15,425 nt of DNA from Methanomicrobiales archaeon (GCA_037137755.1 JBAXJR010000050.1:1-15425), one strand, 5' to 3'; shown: positions 1 through 15,425, counted from the stretch's first letter. Program-made: numbers and translations. The notes: generated from the sequence alone by a model not told the origin.

Positions 1-253
1 GTTCAGAAAGCTGCCCTGTCAACTCTGCGTATTTTGCATTCCAGCGTTCGACCGTGCGTGTCCCGCCATGGACAATGTAATCATTTTCAAGATAGTAGAG
101 TTCAAATGAGGATTTTTCAATATTGGCAATGATCTGCTGCTTTTTTTGAATTTCCTGAAGCTGGTTGACACTCGAAAAATATGAGGACGTTATCACAACT
201 GCCAGTATGACAAAGACGATGATGCTGATACTTACCTGAGTTTTAATTTTCAT
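1..253 (-). CDS. N-terminal part of a membrane-anchored sensor protein, probably a histidine kinase (runs off the window edge)
   Basis: Not in the ORF track. Manual translation from the ATG at 253 gives MKIKTQVSISIIVFVILAVVITSSYFSSVNQLQEIQKKQQIIANIEKSSFELYYLENDYIVHGG..., open to position 1. It has a basic N-terminus, one TM helix and a helical extracytoplasmic segment. A GAGAGGA RBS precedes it and it starts 23 bp after the binding-protein stop. The kinase call is an inference from context. Confidence 0.7.
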   Translation of the reverse strand, partial: MKIKTQVSISIIVFVILAVVITSSYFSSVNQLQEIQKKQQIIANIEKSSFELYYLENDYIVHGGTRTVERWNAKYAELTGQLSE

Positions 254-276
254 ATTCCTCTCAACCACTCCATAAC

Positions 277-1281
277 TTACCGGATGATGGTCACCGATGC
301 GGGTTTCAGTCTGGACAGGATATCAGGAGATATATATTCCGTAAAATCAGGTACAGCAGTCTCATCAGTCATATTGTTTGAGATCCGCCACCGGGTCTCG
401 TCTTCCATTGTTGTGATAAGCGACTGGGAGAGACCAATGGAAAAATGATGATTCGGCCAGTCCTGTTCCATGTACTGATCATCAAAATTTATCTGCTTCC
501 GTGCTATTATTTTAGCTTCTTCCGGGTGAGATTCGACATACGTCTCTGCCTCGAGAACCGATGCCAGCACGGCCTCTGCGATCTCAGGGTGCTCCTTTAA
601 GGTGATATCAGTGCAGACAAGAGAATAGTATGAATGCTGCCCAAGATTGACCGGCCATACCACCGCATTTTCTCCCATCTGCCGCCGCATCTGGTATATA
701 TACGGTTCAAAGGAAAATGCCGCATCTATATCTCCTTTGACAATTGCATCTACGAGTTCTGCAGGTGGCAAATAGATTACAGTAGTATTGCTCATCGACA
801 GGCTATTCAATATAAAAAACCGGCCCATAAAATATTCTACTATGGAACCCTTCGACACGCCGATCTTTTTGCCTTCAAGATCAGATATCTGAATAATTCC
901 CCTATCCTTGCGCCCGACCACAAAACTGGTATCAGATTGTGAAAGCATACCGATCACCCGTAACTTTTTGTTGAACAATGCCGGTTCAGAAAGGGAATAC
1001 TCATTAATATACCCAATATCAAATTTGCGATCCAGGAGGTTCTGCATGGCTACTACGGCTGACGGAGATTCTATGAATGTTACATTTAAGCCGTGTTGTG
1101 TAAAATATCCCTGATCCCGGGCGACCAGCAACAGGGTGGGTTGCACTCCTTTACCCGGATCAATGGTGATATCTGTTAAAGGTACGGGTGTAGGTTTCTG
1201 CGCAGACTGCAGGTACCAGGCTCCTCCGCCGATGAGTATAATTCCGATAACAATGATTCCGATAATTAAGTTTTTGTTCAT
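277..1281 (-). CDS. ABC-type substrate-binding protein, NMT1/THI5/SsuA/TauA-like family, N-terminally membrane anchored
   Basis: Motifs include VARDQGYFTQHGLNV, ISDLEGKKIGVSKGS, AIVKGDIDAAFSFEPY and EHPE...YVESHPEEA. The start is placed at MNKNLIIGIIVIGIILIGGGAW (1281) rather than the track's 1350 because the anchor helix begins there. Confidence 0.88.
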   Translation of the reverse strand: MNKNLIIGIIVIGIILIGGGAWYLQSAQKPTPVPLTDITIDPGKGVQPTLLLVARDQGYFTQHGLNVTFIESPSAVVAMQNLLDRKFDIGYINEYSLSEPALFNKKLRVIGMLSQSDTSFVVGRKDRGIIQISDLEGKKIGVSKGSIVEYFMGRFFILNSLSMSNTTVIYLPPAELVDAIVKGDIDAAFSFEPYIYQMRRQMGENAVVWPVNLGQHSYYSLVCTDITLKEHPEIAEAVLASVLEAETYVESHPEEAKIIARKQINFDDQYMEQDWPNHHFSIGLSQSLITTMEDETRWRISNNMTDETAVPDFTEYISPDILSRLKPASVTIIR

Positions 1282-1422
1282 AATCCGGCTCCGTAAACCA
1301 TCCTCTGAAATATTCCTGAGTAATGATTTCCGATCACAGTCTGAATGCATGCCGTGAAACCCGATGCTCCGCTCTTTGTTATCGGCATAGTATTCGTTCT
1401 CCTGCCTGCATCCTTTGCCATG

Positions 1423-3162
1423 TTACACCCGGTCCTCACTATCCATCCGCCACATCCCTTTCGGCACTTTCATCTCAAACCGTGCACACTTACCCGGCTC
1501 ACCGGTCTCTTTGATGGTGATGCCGGTGATTTCGAGTATCTCCCGTACAAAAATAAGACTTCCCCTCGATGCACGGGTACCCTCACCACGTAAAAAGATC
1601 TTCTCCTTCTTCTCCGGTGGTATCCCGACACCGTCGTCTTCGAAGAAGATTGTGGCCCCTTCAGGGGTAACCGTGTGCCAGACCCGGATCGATGTGGCAT
1701 GGCCACCATGTTTCACCGAATTCTCGAAGAGACGCTGCCAGACTTTTTCCAGCAATGGATCGGCAAAGATTTCGAGGTCTCCTGTTTCAAGGCTGTGTTG
1801 GATACTCCCTATAGTAATATGAGAGAGCCCGAGCAACATCGTTGTCTTTACATTCTGCCAGGCTGGGGGTTTTACCCCCATATCCTGGTAATCCGTTGTG
1901 TACTCGATAATTTTTTGTGTTTCCTGGATAGCACCAACCATTCCCTCAAACGTTTTATCGATCGAACCAGGTCCGTTTAACTGGTGTTTTGCCAGTTCAA
2001 GGTAACCTTTCAGGACAAAGATCTGGTTGTTTAAGTCTTTTCGTGTCAGCCGGGAGAGGATGTTGAGCTTCTGGTTCGTGGTTGCGAGTGCCGTTGAGAA
2101 TTTCCGGAGTTCCTGCTCACTATTCCTGAGCCCTGCATTCGCAGTCAGGATTGCCTGCTCAAGGAGTGTAATCTCATCGTTCCCGGTAAGTTCCGGTTTC
2201 ATATCGTCATGTTGCCCCTGGCCTATCTTCACAACGCGGTCTTTCAGGCGATTCAGTCGTTTTAGTACGATCTGGTCTATGATAAGAAGGACAATCACCA
2301 GCGTGACTAACAGTATAAAAACGAAGAGTACCAGGTACGTCTGAATCATCTTCAGCCCGTTCTGGTAGAGATCCCGCGGTTGGTCGGTTTCAATCAGAAT
2401 TTTCTGTCCGTTAAGATCGCTGATTACCTTGTATCCCGATATGATACCGTCTGAATGAGGGATACTGACCGGTACCGAATCCGGGTTCATTTGTTCCAGG
2501 AGTGAACGTTGCAGGTTACCTGCACTCGTATCTCCATTCCAGTGAGCGGATGTGGGGTTTCCTGTGGCACGGGAGATACGGTCAAATTCACGCGTATCAA
2601 GAGCCCTTCCCATAACAAGGACCCCGTTTGAAGGACCTTCCCTTGTGTTGTTAAGCACCGGCGATGATGCAATCAGTATGGGCCCCGTAGGCAGAAGGAG
2701 GATGCCGGTATTCGTACCTGGCAGGGAGGTATGGGTAAGGAAGTGATGATCTGGGGGGAGGAACTGGCTGAAATTTTCGGGTAACGGGCTTTCACGACCG
2801 GTGACCGGATCCACGATGTTACCATAGAGGATGTTTCCCTTGGTATCGGTTACCATAAACAGGTTAGTGTGGATCGCCGTCAGTGACTTTTCATCCAGGT
2901 TTTGTGTGATATAATCCTGGTTCTGATCAAGAGCGAACTGGTACGTTTCATCCCAGTAAGACCAGTCGTGAAGCGTATTACTGAGATCATCCTGCTCGTT
3001 TGATATGGCGCCGATTACTTCGGTCATATCTTTCGAGACCTGCTGGTGTTCAAGGCGCCCCAGTTGATCAATATACAGGAACATCGAGACTCCTGCGATT
3101 ACACAGAAGAGTACAATAAAGGTGATACCGAGTACCAGCAGCGTTTTCTTACGGATGTCCAT
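1423..3162 (-). CDS. CHASE4-HAMP-HisKA-HATPase membrane sensor with a degenerate kinase core (His-to-Lys pseudokinase)
   Basis: Two TM helices flank a CHASE4 domain (LHDWSYWDETYQF...GVLVMGR). A HAMP linker (VLKRLNRL...GNDEITLL) and the G1 box EDDGVGI follow. The H box reads TRKDLNNQI instead of TRHDINNQL. Confidence 0.88.
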   Translation of the reverse strand: MDIRKKTLLVLGITFIVLFCVIAGVSMFLYIDQLGRLEHQQVSKDMTEVIGAISNEQDDLSNTLHDWSYWDETYQFALDQNQDYITQNLDEKSLTAIHTNLFMVTDTKGNILYGNIVDPVTGRESPLPENFSQFLPPDHHFLTHTSLPGTNTGILLLPTGPILIASSPVLNNTREGPSNGVLVMGRALDTREFDRISRATGNPTSAHWNGDTSAGNLQRSLLEQMNPDSVPVSIPHSDGIISGYKVISDLNGQKILIETDQPRDLYQNGLKMIQTYLVLFVFILLVTLVIVLLIIDQIVLKRLNRLKDRVVKIGQGQHDDMKPELTGNDEITLLEQAILTANAGLRNSEQELRKFSTALATTNQKLNILSRLTRKDLNNQIFVLKGYLELAKHQLNGPGSIDKTFEGMVGAIQETQKIIEYTTDYQDMGVKPPAWQNVKTTMLLGLSHITIGSIQHSLETGDLEIFADPLLEKVWQRLFENSVKHGGHATSIRVWHTVTPEGATIFFEDDGVGIPPEKKEKIFLRGEGTRASRGSLIFVREILEITGITIKETGEPGKCARFEMKVPKGMWRMDSEDRV

Positions 3163-4244: not shown

Positions 4245-7200
4245 TTACCTATACATCCCTTTCGGCACCGTCATCTCGAACCGTGCACCCTTACCCGGCT
4301 CCCCGGTCTCTTTGATAGTAATGCCGGTAATGGAGAGGATCTCCCGGGAGAGGAATAATCCAAGCCCGGTGTTCTTTCCGAATCCACGCTCGAAGATCTT
4401 TTCTTTATCTTCGGCGGGGATACCATTGCCGTCGTCCTCACAGACTATAACACAATCACTATCTCGTTTCTCAACCGTGAACCGGATTGTCGTGATCCTC
4501 CCGCCATACCGTACAGCGTTGTCCATCAGGTTGAAAAATACTTTGACAATCAACTGGTCTGCAAACATTGCCATATCAGCCGGAATATCATTCACCAGTT
4601 TGATATCGCCTAATACAACTTCTTTACCTGCAGTGTTTACAAGTTCATGGGTATTCTGCCAGATGGGAGCGTTGACTCCAATACCTTCGTAGGTTTTCGT
4701 AAATTGGATCATTGCCTGAATCCGTTCGGACGCGCTGGTAATTTTGTTGAAATAGTCACTGAATGAAGAATCAGGTTGTTTCATTTCCAGTAGTTCGAGA
4801 TAGCCCATTAAAACGGTCAGCTGGTTGTTGATATCATGCCGGGTGATACTGGAGAGAAGGGTCAGTTTTTTATTCGCTATGCCAAGGGCCACCGAAAATC
4901 GACTAAGTTCCTCCTCGTGGAACTTTGTTTCGTATTCGATCATCTTATGTTCGGTTATGTCATCAAAAATTGCTACAAAGTATTCCTTTGCAGGAGAATA
5001 AACAGAAATATGCAACCATTTATTGGAAGGTGTGAAATCGAGATCAAATGATTCCGGCTCACCGGTAGAGGCAACTCTCCCATAGATTTCAAAAAGTTGC
5101 GGCATTTCTTCCCTGATCCCCGGGAAAACATCAGTAACTGGCTTTCCGATCACAGTAGTGGTCCCGATAATCCGGTCAAAGGAGGAATTAACATTGAGAT
5201 AGATGAAATCTTTGGGGAGACCGTGCTCATCATACAGCATTCGGCAATAGGCAAAACCTTCCAGCATATTTTCAAAGAGACTGCGGTACCTCTGTTCACT
5301 ATTGCGCAGTTCCTCTTCGATCCACCTGCGCTCGGTGATATCCCGTGCTGCAGCAAAGATCAGGTTATTTTTGGGGCTGGGGAATGAACGCCATTCAATC
5401 CATCGGTAACTTCCGTCCTTGCACCGGTAACGGTTCGTAAAGTTAAGCACTATCTTCTTTTTATCAAGGTCTGCAATCGCATCAAGTGTCGCGGCAATGT
5501 CATCGGGGTGAACAAAGTCGAGGAACCGGGCTCCCTCCAGGTCGGCAAGCGAATAGCCGAGTGATACTTCCCATTCTGGGTTCAGACGCCGGAAATAACC
5601 ATCAGTATCAGCAATACAGAACAGGTCAAGGCTCGTCGAGAAATACTGGTCCAGCTCCTCGGTCTTTTCCTGCAATGCTTCTTCCGCCCGTTTGCGCCCG
5701 GTAATGTCCCGCATCTTGACGATTGTATGCTGTTTTCCCTGCCAGAGTACGGAACCGGAAGTGGTCTCGCCATAGAACAAGCTGCCATCCTTCCTGATAC
5801 CGGTAACATCGATCGATCCTATGAACCCTGACTCTTTCCATTTGGAGATGGCATCCAGGGAGTCAGAAGTGAGCATAAATTCAAACCCATTGCAGCCGAC
5901 GATCTCTTCTGGTGAGTAACCGAACATTTCAGCAAATCGTGGGTTGGAGTCTACGATGAGACCATTGTCGTGAATCATGATACCTTCAAAAGCAGCATCG
6001 GAAAGCATCCGGAATCTCGCCTCACTCTCCCGGAGCCGTTCCTCTGCCATTTTTCTTTCGGTTATGTCCACGGACAGGATCTGGACACCGGTCTTTGTTC
6101 CTTTATCATCTTTGACATTGGAGAATGTTGAGAGGAACCATCTCCGGCCTGCAGGCATGGGAACTTCATCTTCGTAATGAGTATCCGTTTCCGAATACTG
6201 CATTTTCCTAATCCGTTTGAGAAAATACTCATTATCTGGACCGGAAGGGAAAAGATCCCGGATATTTTTCCCGATAATCTTCCTACAGTCATCGAGTCCC
6301 ATATTCAGACAACCCTGGCGGTTCATATGGAGGAGAACACCGTCATAACTCCAGTACCCGATCCCGATCCCTGCAGAATCAAGAAGGGTGCGGTATTGTT
6401 CTTCTCTCGCAACGAGTGCCTCTTCAACCTGTTTACGTTCGGTAATATCACGTCCGATTACTACGAGCCCTTTACGACTTCCGTCTTCGTTAAAAATCGG
6501 GACTTTAATGACATCAAAAACCATTGCAGTTCCATCCGGGCGTGGGATGGTCTCCTCACAACGGGTTATTGCTTTATTATTCCACGTTTCTTCATCGCTT
6601 GATTCACAGGTAAGAAACGCATCCCGGTAAAAAGAACAATACTCAGCAAGATCGGAATCTTTCTTGCCCTGGTACGGGACACCATCAAGTTGGAAGAGAT
6701 TCAGGTCAAAATCGTTCGCTTCAAGCCATCTCCCTTGCCCATCTTTGAAACAGACGATATCGGGCATTGAGTTGATTAAAGTCCGAAGTTGCTCACTTTG
6801 TTTAAGTAACGCCTCTTCTGCTGACCTTTTTTGCATTTCCTGATCGATCGTCCTGGTAGCAAATGAAATCTCATGTGATATTTCCTCCAAGAGACCGACC
6901 ACGCCATCATCGAAAAATCCTGTTACCGGGGCATAAAGGGTTAAAACTCCCGCGTTATGAGTACCAAGAGCAAATGGAAAAGCGGCGTTTGCACGATAAC
7001 CATGTTTCAGTGCAGTTTCTCTCCATGGTTCCATGCGAGGATCTTGTGAAAAATCGTTTGAGAAATAGTATTTCCCTTCCCGGAATGCTGTGCCGGTCGG
7101 TCCGCGACCCTGAGGGACATCCTCAATTGAGATATTGATGGTATCAAGATATCCATCAACATGTCCGGCAGAGGCAACCGGTCTGATGATCTTACATTCC

Positions 7201-7751
7201 AAGTCTGCAAGACCTATCCAGACCATCCGGAAACCCCCGATTTCTACAAGTATCCGGCAGATTTCATTGAAAAATACTTCTTTATCCCGGATGTGGACGA
7301 TCGCCTTGTTGGTTGCTGAAAGCACAGAGTACAGACGGTTTTGGATGATAAGCCGTTCTTCCGCTTCCCTGTTATAAACAGATCTCCTGATCTTATGTGT
7401 CAGCTCGGCAAATTGGGATTCCGGGTCTCCGCCTTTCTGGAGATAAAAATCTGCACCCTCATTGAGTGCCTTAATAACTATTTCTTCACGGCCTTTCCCT
7501 GTGAAGAGGACGAACGGGATGTGCCCGAGTATTGTTCGGACCTTAATAAGGAATTGGATGCCATCCATCTCGGCCATCTGGTAATCTGATACAATAGCAT
7601 CGAATTTCTCCTGCTGGAGGAGATCTAACGCTGCGGGGGCTGAATCGATGGTTGTTACAGAAAAATCTCCGAATTTCTCTAAAAACAGCTTGCCGATATC
7701 AAGGAGTTCGGGTTCGTCATCAACGTACAGGATCCGGAGTCTATCTGGCAT
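4245..7751 (-). CDS. Soluble hybrid sensor histidine kinase, REC-GAF-PASx5-HisKA-HATPase
   Basis: N-terminal receiver (ILYVDDE, IVSDYQM, FTGKG, QK) and GAF domain (GRGPTGTAFREG). Five PAS/PAC units end in DITERK, DITERK, DITGRK, DITERR and DITEHK. The H box is TRHDINNQL, the N box NLMDNAVRYG, G1 EDDGNGI and G2 GKNTGLGL. Confidence 0.95.
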   Translation of the reverse strand: MPDRLRILYVDDEPELLDIGKLFLEKFGDFSVTTIDSAPAALDLLQQEKFDAIVSDYQMAEMDGIQFLIKVRTILGHIPFVLFTGKGREEIVIKALNEGADFYLQKGGDPESQFAELTHKIRRSVYNREAEERLIIQNRLYSVLSATNKAIVHIRDKEVFFNEICRILVEIGGFRMVWIGLADLECKIIRPVASAGHVDGYLDTINISIEDVPQGRGPTGTAFREGKYYFSNDFSQDPRMEPWRETALKHGYRANAAFPFALGTHNAGVLTLYAPVTGFFDDGVVGLLEEISHEISFATRTIDQEMQKRSAEEALLKQSEQLRTLINSMPDIVCFKDGQGRWLEANDFDLNLFQLDGVPYQGKKDSDLAEYCSFYRDAFLTCESSDEETWNNKAITRCEETIPRPDGTAMVFDVIKVPIFNEDGSRKGLVVIGRDITERKQVEEALVAREEQYRTLLDSAGIGIGYWSYDGVLLHMNRQGCLNMGLDDCRKIIGKNIRDLFPSGPDNEYFLKRIRKMQYSETDTHYEDEVPMPAGRRWFLSTFSNVKDDKGTKTGVQILSVDITERKMAEERLRESEARFRMLSDAAFEGIMIHDNGLIVDSNPRFAEMFGYSPEEIVGCNGFEFMLTSDSLDAISKWKESGFIGSIDVTGIRKDGSLFYGETTSGSVLWQGKQHTIVKMRDITGRKRAEEALQEKTEELDQYFSTSLDLFCIADTDGYFRRLNPEWEVSLGYSLADLEGARFLDFVHPDDIAATLDAIADLDKKKIVLNFTNRYRCKDGSYRWIEWRSFPSPKNNLIFAAARDITERRWIEEELRNSEQRYRSLFENMLEGFAYCRMLYDEHGLPKDFIYLNVNSSFDRIIGTTTVIGKPVTDVFPGIREEMPQLFEIYGRVASTGEPESFDLDFTPSNKWLHISVYSPAKEYFVAIFDDITEHKMIEYETKFHEEELSRFSVALGIANKKLTLLSSITRHDINNQLTVLMGYLELLEMKQPDSSFSDYFNKITSASERIQAMIQFTKTYEGIGVNAPIWQNTHELVNTAGKEVVLGDIKLVNDIPADMAMFADQLIVKVFFNLMDNAVRYGGRITTIRFTVEKRDSDCVIVCEDDGNGIPAEDKEKIFERGFGKNTGLGLFLSREILSITGITIKETGEPGKGARFEMTVPKGMYR

Positions 7752-8019
7752 TATATTTTATTTATTCTCTTTGCAATACATATGGATTTGTTATTGCCTT
7801 GCACCAGCCAGTCCAGGTTTTCCCTCGTCCTTCCCAACAAACATTGCCTGGAGGTGCCGTATAATACAAAGGCAAAATAGCGAGGTTCAATGCCCCGCAT
7901 CAATGTCGTTCAAATTCAACTTATCCCGATCATACAGATTTCCCGCCTATTCTTAAAACCCAGCTAAAACAACCAATATAAGGCCGAATTACCAGAAAGC
8001 CCTCTCAAATGGGGTAGTA

Positions 8020-8268
8020 TTACCCGCTCCCAACCGACTTCCACCACCCTTGTCCGTTTAAATCGCCCGCATTGGCCTCCTTTCTCGTCCAATACCGGAT
8101 CCTGCTATTTACAGCGATTTTATCCAGATTCCGCCAATAATAGGCCCTCCTTTGCTCCTTATCCTTTTCCGGATTCTGTAAACGCCACTGTTTCCACCTC
8201 GGAATGGCCCTTTTCCGGTGTTTTGCGATCAATATAGCGGTCCGGAGCGAAACGGTAACTGAGCTCAT
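8020..8268 (-). CDS. Small basic (Arg/Lys/Trp-rich) hypothetical protein of 82 aa, virus/mobile-element-like
   Basis: A GAGGTG SD (8274-8279) sits 5 nt before the ATG at 8268. The sequence contains WKQWRLQNPEKDKEQRRAYYWRNLDKI. Confidence 0.55.
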   Translation of the reverse strand: MSSVTVSLRTAILIAKHRKRAIPRWKQWRLQNPEKDKEQRRAYYWRNLDKIAVNSRIRYWTRKEANAGDLNGQGWWKSVGSG

Positions 8269-8410
8269 GAGCCCACCTCGATATACCCGGTCCCTTTCCG
8301 GGTCGGGGATGCTGCAGCCTGGCAACAGTTCTCGCAGATCTGAAAAGCAATCGTATCCGTCTTGCCTTCTCTTCCCCGGTCAACTTCCCGATTGTGTCCA
8401 CCTCGTATTC

Positions 8411-8470
8411 AACGAAGAGGGTGAGTAGAGAATTTAAAAAAAAAGATTTATGGAAATGTAGCCCCGGAAA
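8411..8470. repeat. Dispersed repeat A, copy 2
   Basis: Core TATGGAAATGTAGCCC at 8449-8464. AGCCCCGGAAA (8460-8470) also recurs at 4230-4240. On the minus strand the core is followed by a long T run. Confidence 0.8.
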
Positions 8471-8556
8471 GTCCTCCCCCCGAGATTCCGAAGCCGGGCT
8501 CCGAAAAATCGATTCCTCTTCCTCCACCTCCAACCAATCCACAATACACGATTCCG

Positions 8557-8605
8557 GCAAGACTGCATGGCAATACGAACACATGTATGCAGTCCGGGAA
8601 TGCTG
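8557..8605. repeat. Direct repeat B, copy 1 (downstream of the MFS gene), with an internal inverted repeat
   Basis: 41/49 identical without gaps to 12229-12277. It contains GACTGCAT (8561-8568) and its complement ATGCAGTC (8587-8594). Confidence 0.85.
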
Positions 8606-8634
8606 AAAAGAATCCCCGAATAAAAAAATAAAGG

Positions 8635-9897
8635 TTACTTAGGGGGTTTCATCATGAAATACGCGATGATGAGGCCCGCCAGGGCAAGGACGAACACGTA
8701 CGAGAACACGCCCATGTATGTCCCGGTCGTTGTCTTGATCAAGCCGGCCAGCTGGGGTCCTGCAATCGCCCCCGCTCCATAGGCCAGGAATACCAGGCCA
8801 TAACAACGTGGGTAGTCGCAGGTCCCGAAGTACGACCCGGTCGTCGTCGGTGCAATGGCCAGCCAGCCACCCAGGCATCCCCACAGGATGACAAAGGCTA
8901 CCACGTAGGTGATAACCCCGGGCACCTGCCAGAGGAGAAACGCCGCGAATGCGATCAGGACGAACGAGAGCATCGCTGTATTTCTCGGTGTAAACCGGTC
9001 GGTCATCGTGCCAAATACCGGCCTCCCGCCCCCGTTGAAGATCGCGAATACGCCCACCAGCATGGTGGCAAACCCTGTTGCGATCCCTACCTCGGTACCC
9101 ACGGGTTTTGCAACCGATATGGCCAGCAACCCGGCCAGGCAGCCGATGAAGAAGCATATCCAGAGGCCGTAGAAGGATAGCGTCCTTACCATTTGCGAGC
9201 GGTTGCGCTCACAGACGACTATTGCGGTTGCCGGGGGATTCCACCCGGCAGGTTTCCAGCCCGTCGGTGGGAACCGGAGTGGCAGTGCCAGAAGCACCAG
9301 GAGGATGATGAACGCGATACCAAAGATGCGGAACGTGTTCATAACGCCGTAAGCGCCTATCAGGTACCCGGAAAGGTTCGCCGTGATGAATGCCGAAAAC
9401 CCGAACCCGAGCACGGTAAGGCCGACTGCCATACCTCTCCGGTCAGGGAACCAGCGGGCTGCCACCGCAATGGGGACCCCATATGCAATACCTACACCAA
9501 TTCCCCCGATTACCCCGTACACCACGTAGAGCATCTGTACAGACGTAACCGTTGAAGCCAGAAGCCACCCGAGCCCGGTCAGGATTCCGCCGATGATCGT
9601 GATATTCCTCGGGCCCAGTGTCTCGATATACTTCCCGGTCAGCGGCATGGCAATTGCGAAGAACGCCAGGAATACCGAGAACGGGAGCAGGACATCGTTA
9701 GCGGTAACTGCCTGTCCCAGCGTCCCCTTGAAGTATTCGGTCAGCGGGTTGACAAACACACTCCAGGAATAGATCGTCCCCAGGCAGAGGTTGATGGCCA
9801 GACCTAATGCCACGAGTATCCAGCGTCCTTTCTCAACAGGCATTCCAAAGAGCGTGAACGGCTCGTTCACACGACCTGCATTTTCTGTTTCAGTCAT
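8635..9897 (-). CDS. MFS transporter, oxalate/formate antiporter (OFA) family
   Basis: About 12 hydrophobic segments and family-typical motifs: GTIYSWSVF, YGVIGGIGVGIAYG, WFPDRRGMAVGLTVLGFG, FNGGGRPVFGTMTDRF, YGLVFLAYGAGAIAGP. Confidence 0.92.
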   Translation of the reverse strand: MTETENAGRVNEPFTLFGMPVEKGRWILVALGLAINLCLGTIYSWSVFVNPLTEYFKGTLGQAVTANDVLLPFSVFLAFFAIAMPLTGKYIETLGPRNITIIGGILTGLGWLLASTVTSVQMLYVVYGVIGGIGVGIAYGVPIAVAARWFPDRRGMAVGLTVLGFGFSAFITANLSGYLIGAYGVMNTFRIFGIAFIILLVLLALPLRFPPTGWKPAGWNPPATAIVVCERNRSQMVRTLSFYGLWICFFIGCLAGLLAISVAKPVGTEVGIATGFATMLVGVFAIFNGGGRPVFGTMTDRFTPRNTAMLSFVLIAFAAFLLWQVPGVITYVVAFVILWGCLGGWLAIAPTTTGSYFGTCDYPRCYGLVFLAYGAGAIAGPQLAGLIKTTTGTYMGVFSYVFVLALAGLIIAYFMMKPPK

Positions 9898-9941
9898 TTC
9901 CAGTCGCCTGTCATTATGTTTTGAAAAATTTTGGGAATGAT

Positions 9942-11840
9942 TTATTCCTCCAGCGTTGAAATATCGCCTGGATCAATCCCCAGCTCTTTTGCCTTCAGTA
10001 CCCTGCGCATAATTTTTCCGCTCCGGGTTTTCGGCAGTTTATCCACAAACTCGATCTCCTGCGGAACTGCAATGGGCCCCAGCGTCATCCTGACATGGTA
10101 CATCAGGTCCTGCACCAGTTTCTCCGAAGGCTGGTTCCCGACCCGGAGGATCACGAACGCCTTGATACTGTTTCCTTTCACGGTATCCGGCTTTCCGATA
10201 ACTGCAGATTCAGCCACCGCATGGTGGGAAACCAGTGCACTCTCCACCTCGGCCGTCCCGATGTTATGCCCGGAGACGATGATAATATCGTCCGCCCGAC
10301 CGATGACCATGATATAGCCGTCTTTATCCTTAACCGCGAGGTCTCCCGCCGTGTAACACCCGTCTATCGTGTACCAGTACTTCCGGTACCGTTCATCGTT
10401 GTTGTACACGGTCCGGAACATCGAAGGCCACGGGGATTTTATCACGAGGAAACCCCCGGTGCCAGGCTTTACCGGCTTCCCGTTTTTATCGACGACATCC
10501 GCTTCAACACCAGGTATGGGTTTTCCCGCAAATCCCGGGCGCATCGGCTCGCCGATCATGGTGGTTATCATCTGCATTCCTGTTTCAGTCTGCCACCACG
10601 TGTCCACGATTGGGCACCGGGTCTTTCCGATGACATGGTAATACCATTCGAATGCTTCTGGGTTGAGTGGTTCTCCCACGGACCCTATCAGTCGCAGGGA
10701 ACTGAGGTCATACTTGTTGGGCCATGATTCGCCGACCTTCATAAATGTCCTGATCGCCGTCGGGGCGGTGTAGAAGACATTGATCTGCTGTTCCTCAATG
10801 AGCTTCCACCAGCTGCCGGCATCGGGATAATCGGGAGTCATTTCGGTGATAAACACGGTGGTGCCTACCGCCAGGGGGCCATACACGATGTAACTGTGAC
10901 CGGTAATCCACCCGGGGTCTGCCGTGCACCAGAAGACATCGTTTTCTTTTAAGTCAAAGACATATTTACTCGTGTAATATGTCCCCACCATGTAGCCGGC
11001 ACAGGTATGGACGACCCCTTTCGGTGTCCCGGTTGAACCGCTGGTATAGAGCATGAAGAGCGGGTCTTCTGCATCCATCACCTGCGGTGGACATACCCTC
11101 GGCACGTCTTCCATGAACTCGTAGAAATCAAGTTCGAACCCGGGCCTCAGTTCCACTGGTTGTTCCTTCCGGCGTCGTAATACGATGATGTGTTCCACCG
11201 TGGACGCGTTTAATATCGCTTCCTGCACGACCGGGATCAGGGGGATGGCCTTTCCACGGCGTAATGCGATATCGGCGGTAACTACGACCTTTGCCTCGGC
11301 GTCAACAATCCTCATGTTCAGTGCGGTAACCCCGAACCCGCCAAACACGACACTGTGAACGGCACCAATCCTGGCACAGGCAAGCATGGCGATGATCTGT
11401 TCAGGTACCATCGGCATGTAGATGCAGACCCGGTCTCCTTTTTTTACACCGATTTTTTGGAGCCCGTTGGCAAAACGCATGACCTCGGAAAGTAATTTCT
11501 GGTAGGTGTAGACCCGCTCTTCACCCTCTTCGCCTCTCCATATGAGGGCTGCTTTATTACGCCGGTCGGTACTTACGTGCCGGTCGAGGCAGTTCGCGGT
11601 GATGTTGAGCTTGGCATCGACAAACCATTTTGCATACGGGTAATTCCATTCCCGGACTGTGTTCCACGGGCGAATCCAGTCAAGATTTTTGGCAATTCCA
11701 CTCCAGAAGGTATCCGGGTCCGCGATAAATTCGTCATACTTCTTCTGGTAGTCACCTATCCAGGAATTGAGTTTTAACTCTGGTTCCGGGGTGTAATACT
11801 TGGCATTTTCTACAAGTCTGACATCAAATGACTCTTTCAT
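9942..11840 (-). CDS. acs: AMP-forming acetyl-CoA synthetase (acetate--CoA ligase)
   Basis: Motifs [67 protein letters not shown] and the terminal [12 protein letters not shown]. Confidence 0.97.
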
Positions 11841-12497: not shown

Positions 12498-13679
12498 TTA
12501 CCGCCACATCCCCTTGGGCACCACCATCTCGAACCGTGCACCTTTGCCCGGCTCGCCGGTCTCTTTGATCGATATTCCTGTAATTGCAAGGATCTCACGG
12601 GAAAGGAACAACCCAAGACCTGTGTTCTTCCCGAATCCCCGATCGAAGATTTTCTCTTTTTCATCAGCCGGGATACCCACACCGTCGTCCTCACATACCA
12701 TCTGAAGGTCTCCCCCGGATTGTTCAATATAGAATCGGATAGTCGTGATTTTGCCACCGTAACTTACAGCATTATCCATCAGGTTATAAAACACTTTTAC
12801 TATCATCTGGTCGGCGAACATTTCTGTGCTGGCAGGGATCTCGTTAACCAGTTGAATATCCCCTAAAGCTACATCTTTTACAGCAATGTCCACAAGATTG
12901 GATATATTTTGCCAAGAGGGAACGTTGACGCCTATACTTTCGTAGGTTTTTGTAAACTGGATCATCGCGGAAATCCGCTGTGCTGAAGAATCGATCTTCT
13001 GGAAATAGTCGTTGAATACGGGATCGGGTTGTTTCTTTTTAAGTATGGAAATGAACCCCCTGAGGACCGTGAGTTGGTTACTGATATCGTGGCGTGTAAT
13101 ACCCGACAGGAGATTGAGTTTTTTATTAGCAAGCAAAAGCGCTTCTTCTGCCTGCTTTCGCATCTGGACTTCTTTATGCAATTCATCTGTCTCCATCTCT
13201 AACTCGACCTGAGCATCCGCAAGTTCCCGGCTCATATTGACCAGTTCATTGTTGAGACGGGTAAGGTCCTCGTAAACCTGGTAGTCCGGTAATCTCCTTC
13301 CATCTGCGGATGTATCGGCTTCGCACAGTAAGGAGAAATCGATTGGGTTGTCATCAGGATACAGGATATCGGAAATTAGCGGTCCAAGGTTGGAACACGA
13401 GGTGGTGCCGAATATTAAAAAACAGTCCCTCAGTCGCATGCCGGTACAAAAGAGGGGTTTTGATGTGCCATTCTTCACAAATTCAATTGGTCTGCTGATC
13501 GACACTCCATCAGTTGAAAGTGTTAAGAAAAACCGGGTGGCGGCCTCCTTTGAAGAGACTGCAACGTATCGTGAGAGGTGTTCATTGCCCGCATCCCCGC
13601 CAAAGATACTGAAATCGTCACGATGGACCTGGAGGACAATGCCATTGTGATCACAGACAAACACGATTCCCGGATTCAT
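12498..13679 (-). CDS. Soluble histidine kinase with a degenerate PAS-like N-terminus and coiled-coil linker; probable partner of the B12/globin protein
   Basis: N-terminus GIVFVCDHNGIVLQV, coiled coil YEDLTRLNNELVNMSRELADAQVELE, H box TRHDISNQL, N box NLMDNAVSYG, G1 EDDGVGI and G2 GKNTGLGL. The start is placed at MNPG (ATG 13679, preceded by AGGT) rather than the TTG at 13760. Confidence 0.92.
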   Translation of the reverse strand: MNPGIVFVCDHNGIVLQVHRDDFSIFGGDAGNEHLSRYVAVSSKEAATRFFLTLSTDGVSISRPIEFVKNGTSKPLFCTGMRLRDCFLIFGTTSCSNLGPLISDILYPDDNPIDFSLLCEADTSADGRRLPDYQVYEDLTRLNNELVNMSRELADAQVELEMETDELHKEVQMRKQAEEALLLANKKLNLLSGITRHDISNQLTVLRGFISILKKKQPDPVFNDYFQKIDSSAQRISAMIQFTKTYESIGVNVPSWQNISNLVDIAVKDVALGDIQLVNEIPASTEMFADQMIVKVFYNLMDNAVSYGGKITTIRFYIEQSGGDLQMVCEDDGVGIPADEKEKIFDRGFGKNTGLGLFLSREILAITGISIKETGEPGKGARFEMVVPKGMWR

Positions 13680-13801
13680 GGATACTACCTGTAAGAATCT
13701 TTTTATCTTAATACTATGAGCAAGGTAGTAATACCTGTGGACGAGTATAAAAAATTGCAAGGAATTTTTCTGCCATATCTTTGTTCTCCCGGATAACAGT
13801 T

Positions 13802-14875
13802 TCAGGAAATAAGCCAGTCTGCAAGTGAAACTGCCGCTTCTGCACTGGGGGCATATGCATCTGCCTCGACTTTTTTCCAGAGATCGGGCATAATGTTGAA
13901 CGGGTATCCTCCAATAATGATCGCGACCTCCTTTGTGTCCGGAGAGCTCCGGAGTGCCTTGATGAGGGAATAAACCTGGGGGATGTGAAAAGACATGGTT
14001 GAAGAAATGGCAACAATAGAGACTTTTCGCTCCCTGACTGCCTGAATAACACTGTTGGAAGGGCTGTTAGAACCAATATAGTACGTGTCCCAGCCGTCCA
14101 TCTCTAAGAAATCAGCAACAATCCGCATCCCGACTTCATGGAGTTCACCCGAAACACAGGCTGCGATCACGGTCCTCCCCCGTTTCACAATTTTCTTATT
14201 TCCGGCAATGAACAGGTGGTAAAACTGCGCAAGGATCTGCTGTGTTGAGGCTGTTATATAGTGCTCCTGCGCTACACTGATCTCCTGCATCTGCCACAAC
14301 CGGCCGGTTTCACGAAGAACCGGCTGGAAGATTAACAGGTATACATCCCTTACCGGTGTGCCACTATTAACCAAATCCATAACCAAATCGTGGGCTTTTG
14401 CGCGGTCTCCATGTAATAGTAAAGTAAGATATTCGTTTGCCACCTGCCTGAGAGGATTATCGTCGGTGATAAAGGAAGGGACCGTAGTCGGGGCTTTGGT
14501 AAGCATTAACAGGCATTGCTCAATATATTCATGGGATTTTCTACTCTGTTCTTCAGGCAGTTCCCTGTCGAGGACTTCCATAAGTACCTCAAGACCTGAC
14601 GAGAGGCAGTTTTTTGGCAGCCCGAGAGATGATAGTAATACGTTAGCCCACTTGGCATAATCGATGAGAATAGCAGCATCACTGACTGCCAGTGACTCCC
14701 CGATGTACTGAATATGGTAGGAGAAATCTTCAAGTGTACGTGCTTTCTGGTACGCGTTGTATCCGTTGATTATATCCGGATATCGCTGTTCATAGCTCTC
14801 GTATGCTTTCTGCGCAATCGCTCTGTAATTAAGATCAACCGGCTGATAAAGCAGTTCCTGTTCCTTAAAATTCAT
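13802..14875 (-). CDS. Globin-like (photoglobin/phycobiliprotein-fold) domain fused to a CarH-type cobalamin-binding module (B12-binding_2 + B12-binding)
   Basis: W194-x9-E204-H205 (GRLWQMQEISVAQEH), E244-x-H246-xx-G (GELHEVG) and the Rossmann motifs VAISSTM and IIIGG. The N-terminal ~125 aa are helical and carry TLEDFSYHIQYIGESL...LSSLGLP. The B12 module is a high-confidence call; the globin call is moderate. Confidence 0.85.
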   Translation of the reverse strand: MNFKEQELLYQPVDLNYRAIAQKAYESYEQRYPDIINGYNAYQKARTLEDFSYHIQYIGESLAVSDAAILIDYAKWANVLLSSLGLPKNCLSSGLEVLMEVLDRELPEEQSRKSHEYIEQCLLMLTKAPTTVPSFITDDNPLRQVANEYLTLLLHGDRAKAHDLVMDLVNSGTPVRDVYLLIFQPVLRETGRLWQMQEISVAQEHYITASTQQILAQFYHLFIAGNKKIVKRGRTVIAACVSGELHEVGMRIVADFLEMDGWDTYYIGSNSPSNSVIQAVRERKVSIVAISSTMSFHIPQVYSLIKALRSSPDTKEVAIIIGGYPFNIMPDLWKKVEADAYAPSAEAAVSLADWLIS

Positions 14876-15425
14876 AAATTATCCTCTTTGCTTTTCCCGG
14901 TTTTACGCCACATGCCGGCTGGCACCGTCATTTCGAACCGTGCTCCTTTGCCAGGTTCCCCTGTCTCTTTGATCGTGATGCCAGTAATGTCAAGGATCTC
15001 CCTCGAAAGGGCCAAACCCATACCGGTGGTCTTACCGAATCCCCGTTCAAAGATCTTCTCCTTCTCATCCGCAGGGATACCCTCACCGTCATCCTCGCAC
15101 ACGATGAGATGAACCTCACCAGATTCCAGAATTGAGAACCCTATGGTCGTTATCTTCCCACCGTACCGGGCTGCATTATCCATCAGGTTGTAAAAAACCT
15201 TGATTACCAGCGGATCGGCGAACACTTCGAAACCGGCAGGGAGATTATTCTTTACCATGATCTTTCCAAGTGGGGCATCCTTTGCCGCAAGGTCTACAAG
15301 TGTACGGGCCTCCTGCCAGGCAGGGACATGGACACCGATTTCCTCGTATTCCCTGGTGAACTGGATCATCGTGGAGATCCGGTCACTCGACCTCGTGATC
15401 CGGGTGAAATAGTCCTCAAGTGTTG
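14872..15425 (-). CDS. C-terminal part of a histidine kinase (end of HisKA + HATPase); the gene starts beyond the window
   Basis: The frame is open to the window edge (TLEDYFTRITRSSDRISTMIQFTRE...). It contains NLMDNAARYG, EDDGEGI, GKTTGMGL and ETGEPGKGARFE. The stop overlaps the next start (ATGA, 14872-14875). Confidence 0.93.
   Translation of the reverse strand, partial: TLEDYFTRITRSSDRISTMIQFTREYEEIGVHVPAWQEARTLVDLAAKDAPLGKIMVKNNLPAGFEVFADPLVIKVFYNLMDNAARYGGKITTIGFSILESGEVHLIVCEDDGEGIPADEKEKIFERGFGKTTGMGLALSREILDITGITIKETGEPGKGARFEMTVPAGMWRKTGKSKEDNL

Follow-up and report, generated by a model that had tools for sequence, protein, structure and literature searches.

Photoglobins number about 5975 in bacteria and archaea according to a computational survey, which names Methanoregula boonei and a Methanoregula sp. 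in an alignment legend (Schneider et al. 2021, PMC8717448). According to its text, the B12 domains precede the globin in some members and follow it in others, and the gene neighbourhoods are rich in sensor kinases and response regulators, with oxygenases that include ABM monooxygenase and haem oxygenase. Two bacterial photocobilins bind adenosylcobalamin (AdoCbl) and biliverdin and undergo a light-driven oligomer change, and photocobilins are grouped in the same report according to the N- or C-terminal position of the AdoCbl domain (Zhang et al. 2024, PMC10979010). A CXQD motif has been named for photoglobins (Rockwell et al., PMC10151467), and the signature published for light-responsive CarH-like B12 domains consists of GxxW, EH, GxxH and GxxxP (PMC11796333). 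Here we describe a protein of this family encoded on a stretch of 15,425 nucleotides from a Methanomicrobiales archaeon (GCA_037137755.1 JBAXJR010000050.1:1-15425; hereafter the window). Its gene, called the sensor gene below, lies between two histidine kinase (HK) genes, and the product is a member of the photoglobin-B12 (photocobilin) family with a CarH-type B12 module. We consider it fairly probable that it acts as a stand-alone sensor of the photocobilin type, whose light-switched cobamide would be read in trans by the downstream HK. The family is already in print, archaea (Methanoregula) included, and the sensor exemplifies a described kind. What the locus adds to the published family is the downstream HK partner with its PAS-like N-terminal domain (N-domain), the fusions of the sensor with HKs and a contrast between bacteria and archaea in the occurrence of ABM genes.

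A photoglobin-B12 protein with a CarH-type module

Three Pfam families were found in the sensor: Phycobilisome (PF00502; residues 16-120, 27.6 bits for a cut-off of 22.2), B12-binding_2 (PF02607; residues 146-217, 50 bits) and B12-binding (PF02310; residues 235-348, 79 bits). The scan covered nine proteins of the window and, at E <= 0.01, detected no DNA-binding or helix-turn-helix family in the sensor. The AlphaFold2 (AF2) model obtained from a 46-row alignment has a pLDDT of 93.0 and a pTM of 0.88, and its globin domain is confidently folded. In a phmmer search of PDB sequences with the sensor as query, the photocobilins 8J2W/8J2X gave the best match (E 4.2e-26); E values for the photocobilin 8J2Y, the MerR-type B12 domain 8JBS, CarH, the monomethylamine (MMA) corrinoid protein of M. 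barkeri and allophycocyanin chains were 2.8e-18, 2.3e-14, about 4e-8 to 7e-8, 5e-4 and 0.01-0.1, respectively. The AF2 model was also compared with about 48,000 PDB representatives. The B12 half of the sensor (residues 140-357) has 8J2Y as its top structural match (Z 25.6, root-mean-square deviation (rmsd) 2.1, 209 aligned positions), followed by 8J2W (Z 25.3, rmsd 2.0, 207 aligned). Further matches are 3EZX (Z 22.2), 8JBS (21.6), MetH (21.4), AerR 7TE2 (20.9), CarH (20.4), the AppA SCHIC domain (19.8) and MtaC 2I2X (18.4). Residues 1-126 match allophycocyanin 8OR7 (Z 14.2, rmsd 2.6, 126 aligned) and the phycobilisome chain 8IMK_G (Z 14.1), a Z near 13-14 being only a moderate level for helical folds.

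The light-response signature is complete in the sensor (G191-R-L-W194, E204-H205, G243-E-L-H246 and G268-S-N-S-P272). Residues W194, E204, H205, H246, G249, G268 and P272 are invariant both in the 46-row alignment and in all 83 rows of a comparison of three groups (36 ABM-linked bacterial, 29 other bacterial and 18 methanogen-clade rows). A chance origin of the motifs was rejected on this invariance. In the phmmer alignment to SasPcob (8J2W/8J2X), H246 corresponds to the axial His108, and W194, E204 and H205 correspond to Trp61, Glu71 and His72 of the adenosyl pocket (PMC10979010). D50 and W76, each conserved in at least 90% of the 46-row alignment, fall opposite SasPcob Asp270 and Trp296, which are biliverdin and corrin contacts in that structure, in a weaker stretch of the alignment (globin part, i-E 0.72). 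SasPcob residues are numbered here with an offset of +6, worked out from W61, E71, H72 and H108.

With SasPcob and AbPcob (8J2Y) the sensor therefore has in common the combination of a CarH-type B12 module with a photoglobin, the absence of a DNA-binding domain, the W-x9-EH and E/DxH motifs and the Asp and Trp of the bilin/corrin contacts. However, the domain order is permuted, the globin being N-terminal in the sensor, an arrangement for which PMC10979010 mentions a group. The sensor's group is known from sequence alone, and its host is an anaerobic archaeon in which no bilin-making enzyme was recognised. Its partner is a PAS-HK, whereas those of the two photocobilins are STAS/SpoIIE proteins or a fused diguanylate cyclase. 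The photoglobin family as presented in PMC8717448 shares the architecture, the archaeal occurrence, both domain orders and the neighbourhoods with sensor kinases and ABM genes; its conserved Cys/Ser/Thr-x-x-Asp position reads T-L-E-D in the sensor. Sections 3.2 and 3.4 of that paper state neither a strict pairing with one specific PAS-like N-domain nor the pattern of ABM genes against anaerobes.

CarH/LitR (5C8D) has the same B12 cap and Rossmann module, W-x9-EH and His-on ligation, but the sensor lacks the MerR helix-turn-helix and its output would run via kinases rather than DNA binding. A CarH-type repressor was rejected on the absence of a helix-turn-helix family in Pfam and on an NCBIfam CarH score of 50 for a cut-off of 400, which covers the B12 part only. 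AerR/PpaA and the AppA SCHIC domain, B12- or haem-binding regulators that work by contact between proteins, resemble the sensor as stand-alone B12-type modules that regulate a partner protein in trans. However, their sequence similarity is weak (E 0.003-0.03) and neither has a globin domain. The methyltransferase corrinoid proteins MtmC (3EZX) and MtaC (2I2X) share the B12-binding fold but have no EH after the Trp, carry DxHxxG, lack the globin and are linked to methyltransferases.

A preliminary description of the locus had read a 357-aa protein with W-x9-EH and ExHxxG motifs and no DNA-binding domain, in which a globin-like N-terminal domain is joined to a CarH-type module. The motifs, the Pfam families and the phycobiliprotein-like fold of the model agree with this, and the profile and structure searches that it proposed against photocobilins and CarH put photocobilins first by sequence (8J2W) and by structure (8J2Y). 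It also took the host for an apparent methanogen, and this holds since the assembly encodes McrA and the nearest named relatives are Methanomicrobiales, Methanoregula and Methanoregulaceae records. Its proposal of a stand-alone corrinoid sensor keeps the B12 module, the globin and the kinase linkage but loses the novelty that it implied, because archaeal members, both domain orders and sensor-kinase neighbourhoods are already reported in the text of PMC8717448. Among running texts on B12-dependent photoreceptors in archaea or methanogens, that computational study was the only paper found with an archaeal member.

The downstream histidine kinase as conserved partner

The downstream HK includes HisKA (residues 195-241) and HATPase_c (residues 293-389) Pfam domains. 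Its first 175 residues gave no Pfam family. A profile search of the N-domain against PDB sequences returned a best E of 0.01, and an Atlas search returned PAS-like leads only (0.88-0.94). In the AF2 model of this domain (pLDDT 86.4) the top 50 structural matches are all PAS or LOV domains, the best being 8RW6_B (Z 11.4, rmsd 1.8, 94 aligned). The model therefore predicts a PAS fold despite the silence of Pfam.

Neighbourhoods were surveyed in the best 80 loci from species genomes (65 bacterial and 15 archaeal) with a hidden Markov model (HMM) built from the first 135 residues of the downstream HK. This profile matched the gene at position +1 exclusively, in 42 of the 80 loci (4 partial), and a locus found by reading raises the number to 43. 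In most of these loci the +1 gene and the sensor gene share 4 nt. At three loci the +1 protein couples the N-domain to GGDEF in place of a kinase. The clade that contains the sensor has four members (the window, two loci of genome G011 and one of G056) and all four carry a 393-405-aa HK directly downstream on the same strand, with a spacer of 23, 37 or 117 nt in the three close orthologs. The N-domain is present once in the host genome, in the downstream HK, while the 61 genomes of the host family contain it in five places distributed over four genomes, each directly downstream of a matched B12 gene. One genome (G042, contig C1, ~239957-241022(-)) shows a B12-only open reading frame (ORF; 241 aa in open frame) directly upstream of a weak N-domain match (E 1.2e-5). 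The ORF matches residues 143-328 of the sensor query only, which is the B12 part without the globin.

Searched against 1.84 billion proteins, the N-domain profile matched 1460 cluster representatives, 1088 of them at E <= 1e-10. Nearly all 150 representatives listed have the domain at their very N-terminus. The first 100 of these carry HisKA (66), HATPase_c (64), GGDEF (6) or a cyclase domain (1), and none carries a B12 or globin domain. A Cys near the N-terminus of the domain is nearly invariant (at least 90% of the 150 representatives), and G, K, F, W and G residues are also conserved. The HK of the window keeps this Cys as C9 (~13653-13655) and lacks the conserved Trp.

Fusions provide another form of linkage. 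An HK is fused to the C-terminus of the sensor in 4 of the 80 loci, but these kinases share with the window HK only the coiled-coil linker and not the PAS core. A 1211-aa hybrid kinase of a relative (genome G029, contig C103, 5346-8981(+)) is composed of REC, PAS repeats, HATPase_c, a gap of globin length, B12-binding_2 and B12-binding. Its REC-PAS-HK part stands at the N-terminus of the sensor and recalls the upstream HK with its ATGA overlap in the window.

The window corresponds to the entire contig C50 (15,425 bp) of an assembly of 2.64 Mb in 106 contigs with 90.6% completeness, and the upstream HK gene is incomplete because it runs off the contig end. The cores of this fragment, of the downstream HK and of a 1168-aa REC-GAF-PAS hybrid kinase (4245-7751(-)) are 64-68% identical over 173 aa. 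On these identities the three kinase cores of the window are close paralogs, and the upstream fragment singles out no ortholog because its 183 aa are 64-68% identical to three different HK cores (66-68% for its core against several paralogous ones).

The preliminary description had wired the sensor to two kinases, one coupled to it by the ATGA overlap and one starting 122 bp further on. Both junctions are as described when read on the minus strand (Table 1). The linkage proves conserved in the clade, in the 43 loci and in the fusions. However, the two kinases do not stand on an equal footing and the conserved partner is the downstream HK. In complex predictions, the sensor and the HK N-domain scored 0.56, 0.51 and 0.64, one unrelated control likewise scoring 0.56. 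Of 13 hand-picked genes at position +2, 11 encode a receiver domain.

Table 1. Features of the sensor locus (positions in the window; residues refer to the encoded protein)
Feature	Position	Strand	Basis or remark
Downstream HK, 393 aa: divergent PAS, coiled coil, HisKA, HATPase_c	12498..13679	(-)	
N-terminal input domain of downstream HK, residues ~1-110	13350..13679	(-)	no Pfam match; PAS fold in AF2 model
Spacer from sensor to downstream HK, 122 nt	13680..13801	(-)	HK ATG at 13679; read on minus strand
Photoglobin-B12 sensor gene	13802..14875	(-)	357 aa, ATG start, ORF calling
Rossmann B12-binding domain, residues 235-356	13808..14173	(-)	Pfam and model
ExHxxG, E244-L-H246-E-V-G249	14129..14146	(-)	H246, predicted lower axial Co ligand
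Four-helix B12 cap (B12-binding_2), residues 143-223	14207..14449	(-)	Pfam and model helices
Adenosyl-pocket motif W194-x9-E204-H205	14261..14296	(-)	W194 at 14294-14296, E204-H205 at 14261-14266
N-terminal globin (photoglobin) domain, residues ~16-125	14501..14830	(-)	PF00502; model helices 17-125
T47-L-E-D50, at the position of the photoglobin CXQD bilin motif, without Cys	14726..14737	(-)	
ATGA overlap of upstream HK stop and sensor start	14872..14875	(-)	read on minus strand
Upstream HK, C-terminal 183 aa	14872..15423	(-)	HATPase_c by Pfam; truncated by contig end

Proposed signalling mechanism and its alternatives

In the mechanism that we favour, the C-terminal CarH-like module would bind a cobamide in the base-off/His-on form via H246, and W194 together with E204-H205 would cap its upper ligand, which may be adenosyl or methyl. 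By analogy with CarH and with the solved photocobilins, light would cleave the Co-C bond. The cap helix might then shift as it does in the light state of SasPcob, altering the oligomeric (dimer) state or the surface of the protein. The downstream HK would contact the sensor and read this change in trans with a PAS-like domain dedicated to it at the N-terminus; the upstream kinase, whose translation is coupled to that of the sensor, may read it too. The kinase would then feed a phosphorelay.

The habitat makes exposure to light conceivable, since the window stretch was detected in metagenome runs from lake water and freshwater (16 rows, 11 studies; in 8 rows at least half of the sampled words were present). 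Metatranscriptome contigs that lie within the sensor gene with 99-100% identity (13822-13995, 14023-14195, 14423-14644 and 13870-14150) hint weakly at its expression. They belong to two libraries of one study, and such contigs can show neither absence nor strand and do not prove transcription or co-transcription. No RNA-library contig matched the part of the downstream HK that is unique to it, an absence that contigs of this kind cannot establish.

Several observations weigh against the light-switched scheme. Archaeal members are known only from their sequences. The supply of an adenosyl-cobamide is not evidenced, since CobA-type and PduO-type adenosyltransferases, like NrdJ, were not found in the 90.6%-complete host genome. 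CobA was not found either in five relatives (G005, G011, G049, G050 and G056), among them two 99%-complete genomes in a single contig. The CobA-type search thus covers six Methanoregulaceae-type genomes and the PduO-type search the host genome only. CbiB is present in the host genome. However, these absences are weak because M. jannaschii, used as a control, matched CbiB and neither of the two adenosyltransferase families. On the bilin side, no haem oxygenase was found in the host genome, its single ABM match is marginal (24.2 bits) and lies away from the window, and the globin-pocket columns of the methanogen clade are unlike the bacterial ones. As for the output, no response regulator adjoins the sensor/HK pair in the window, and the 122 nt that separate the downstream HK from the sensor leave room for a promoter of its own. 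Finally, Methanoregulaceae homologs that are more distant (36-44% identity) lack a neighbouring kinase gene; next to them are genes such as those for a PaaK-like ligase, Cdc6, RuvB or a radical SAM protein.

The main rival is a dark sensor of cobamide status or of redox/O2, light having no physiological role in an anaerobe. The module would accept any cobamide form at hand, for example hydroxo-, methyl- or Co(II)-cobamide, and report the supply or oxidation state of the cofactor to the kinases, much as AerR uses hydroxocobalamin, which in that case is formed by photolysis. The host belongs to a strict-anaerobe lineage with McrA, neither an adenosyltransferase nor an AdoCbl enzyme was recognised in its genome, no bilin-making enzyme was found, and the structural kinship with AerR and AppA SCHIC is clear. 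All of this would suit such a sensor. Against it stands the invariance of W194, E204, H205 and the entire light signature in the 83 rows, the 18 methanogen-clade rows included. The closest solved relatives are proven photoreceptors, the lake-water and freshwater occurrence makes illumination conceivable, and light sensitivity has been reported for methanogens (Olson et al. 1991, as cited in PMC7235767). We therefore regard a purely dark function as rather doubtful.

A second alternative keeps the light response and adds a chromophore. In a full two-chromophore photocobilin, the globin would hold a linear tetrapyrrole non-covalently beside the corrin, as in SasPcob, and extend the response to red light. 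The gene neighbourhoods bear on this point. A small ABM gene lies directly upstream on the same strand in 36 of the 65 bacterial loci and in none of the 15 archaeal loci, as counted with a local HMM from 20 ORFs that were all (20/20) confirmed as PF03992. One ABM protein of these cassettes is closest to the haem-degrading monooxygenases IsdI, HmoB, MhuD and IsdG (E 5e-9 to 2e-5). The known enzymes that convert haem to bilin require O2.

The pocket residues follow a comparable division. At position 47, which corresponds to the Cys of CXQD, Cys is found in 30 of the 36 ABM-linked bacterial rows and 10 of the 29 other bacterial rows but in 0 of the 18 methanogen-clade rows, where T (9), L (3), I (2), A (2) and others occur. 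Positions 43, 51 and 59 carry the small residues G, A and A in ABM-linked bacterial rows versus Q, F and Q/E in the methanogen clade. D50 is present in 36/36 ABM-linked, 29/29 other bacterial and 13/18 methanogen-clade rows, and W76 in 36/36, 29/29 and 16/18, respectively. The raw table of ABM linkage against Cys47 in 86 rows reads 30/6/11/39. It contains just two phylogenetically independent pairs on supported branches, so that the link between the ABM gene and Cys47 is not separable from ancestry.

The sensor itself retains D50 and W76, the equivalents of the biliverdin/corrin contacts, with T47 in place of the Cys. Since SasPcob also binds biliverdin without a Cys link (PMC10979010), the Cys of CXQD is not obligatory for the family. 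This and the confidently folded globin domain speak for a second chromophore. They are set against the missing haem oxygenase, the absence of the IsdG-like gene from the archaeal loci, the substitution of Cys47 and of the small pocket residues, and the O2 requirement of bilin synthesis. Taken together these make a two-chromophore sensor unlikely. The methanogen version would thus operate without endogenous bilin and, given neither an obvious bilin supply nor the CXQD Cys, the B12 centre is probably the only or main chromophore in this clade, although some tetrapyrrole might still bind, since SasPcob takes up biliverdin with no Cys.

The missing haem oxygenase, IsdG-like gene and CXQD Cys of the methanogen clade lead to a tentative extension of the stand-alone sensor, which we hold to be possible rather than probable. 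Methanogen photoglobin-B12 proteins would be bilin-free sensors with cobamide as their sole chromophore or ligand, docking on the PAS domain of the partner kinase that Pfam does not see.

A methyl-carrying MtaC/MtbC/MttC-like corrinoid protein of methylotrophic methanogenesis, to which the annotation of some homologs as 'methanogenic corrinoid protein MtbC1' in source records and the structural match to M. barkeri 3EZX might point, is highly implausible and was ruled out for practical purposes, since the sensor scores far under the NCBIfam cut-offs (MtgC 56/370, MtbC 54/350, pyl_corrinoid 49/215, MtaC 34/420), has an additional globin domain, has no methyltransferase gene among the nine scanned window proteins and differs from the genome's own protein of this type (contig C20, 235 aa), which has DxHxxG without EH. 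The clustering with MtaC/MtbC that the preliminary description had named for checking was accordingly not found. Contig C20 also contains a second kinase-corrinoid pairing of the host genome, with ORFs 57-1373(+), 1402-2109(+) and 2106-3161(+). They encode in this order a PAS-PAS-HK, the 235-aa protein with B12-binding_2 and B12-binding, and a URO-D/MtaA-like methyltransferase.

We know of no photoreceptor or B12-based signalling protein characterised in a methanogen. If the bilin-free sensor that docks on the PAS domain of its kinase is real, the locus would provide the first two-component pathway with light (or cobamide state) as its input in a methanogen, by which a light-sensitive and O2-sensitive anaerobe in a lake water column could respond to illumination. 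A kinase switched by light or by cobamide state would bear on light perception by strict anaerobes of lake water, on the role of a photoglobin domain where no bilin can be made, and on the way in which a stand-alone B12 sensor passes its signal to a kinase by one specific PAS domain. The sensor-PAS-kinase pairing might also serve as a compact green-light module for optogenetics.

Distribution and genomic surroundings

The sensor family is large: of 4696 candidates, 1908 reach E <= 1e-3, and at least 575 of the 599 matched stretches listed from species-representative genomes were confirmed. Its distribution in the host family is patchy, with matches at E <= 1e-30 in 10 of 61 genomes (counting the host) and in 5 of 19 genera. 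In a quick, midpoint-rooted IQ-TREE phylogeny of 86 rows, with SH-aLRT as the only measure of support, the sensor belongs to a 4-row clade (support 98) nested in an 18-row clade composed exclusively of Methanoregulaceae-type sequences (support 99). The other three archaeal rows (Methanotrichaceae, Methanohalophilus and the G029 fusion) branch among bacteria.

In the kinase-less Methanoregulaceae subclades the sensor gene lies repeatedly beside a gene for a PaaK-like AMP-binding ligase of about 450 aa (L018 9105-10460(-), L021 6629-7984(+), L029 7133-8485(-), L031 7961-9331(-) and L034 7177-8526(-)). This adjacency may be functional or may be inherited synteny only.

Elsewhere in the window, an NMT1/THI5-like substrate-binding gene (277-1350) follows a CHASE4-HAMP-type HK gene (1423-3162) on the same strand (277-3162(-)), and the two may form a pair of ligand-binding protein and kinase. 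The region 8001-11000 has a G+C content of 53-56%, compared with 44-50% in the rest of the window. This high-G+C stretch contains an MFS transporter gene (8635-9897) and an acetyl-CoA synthetase gene (9942-11840).

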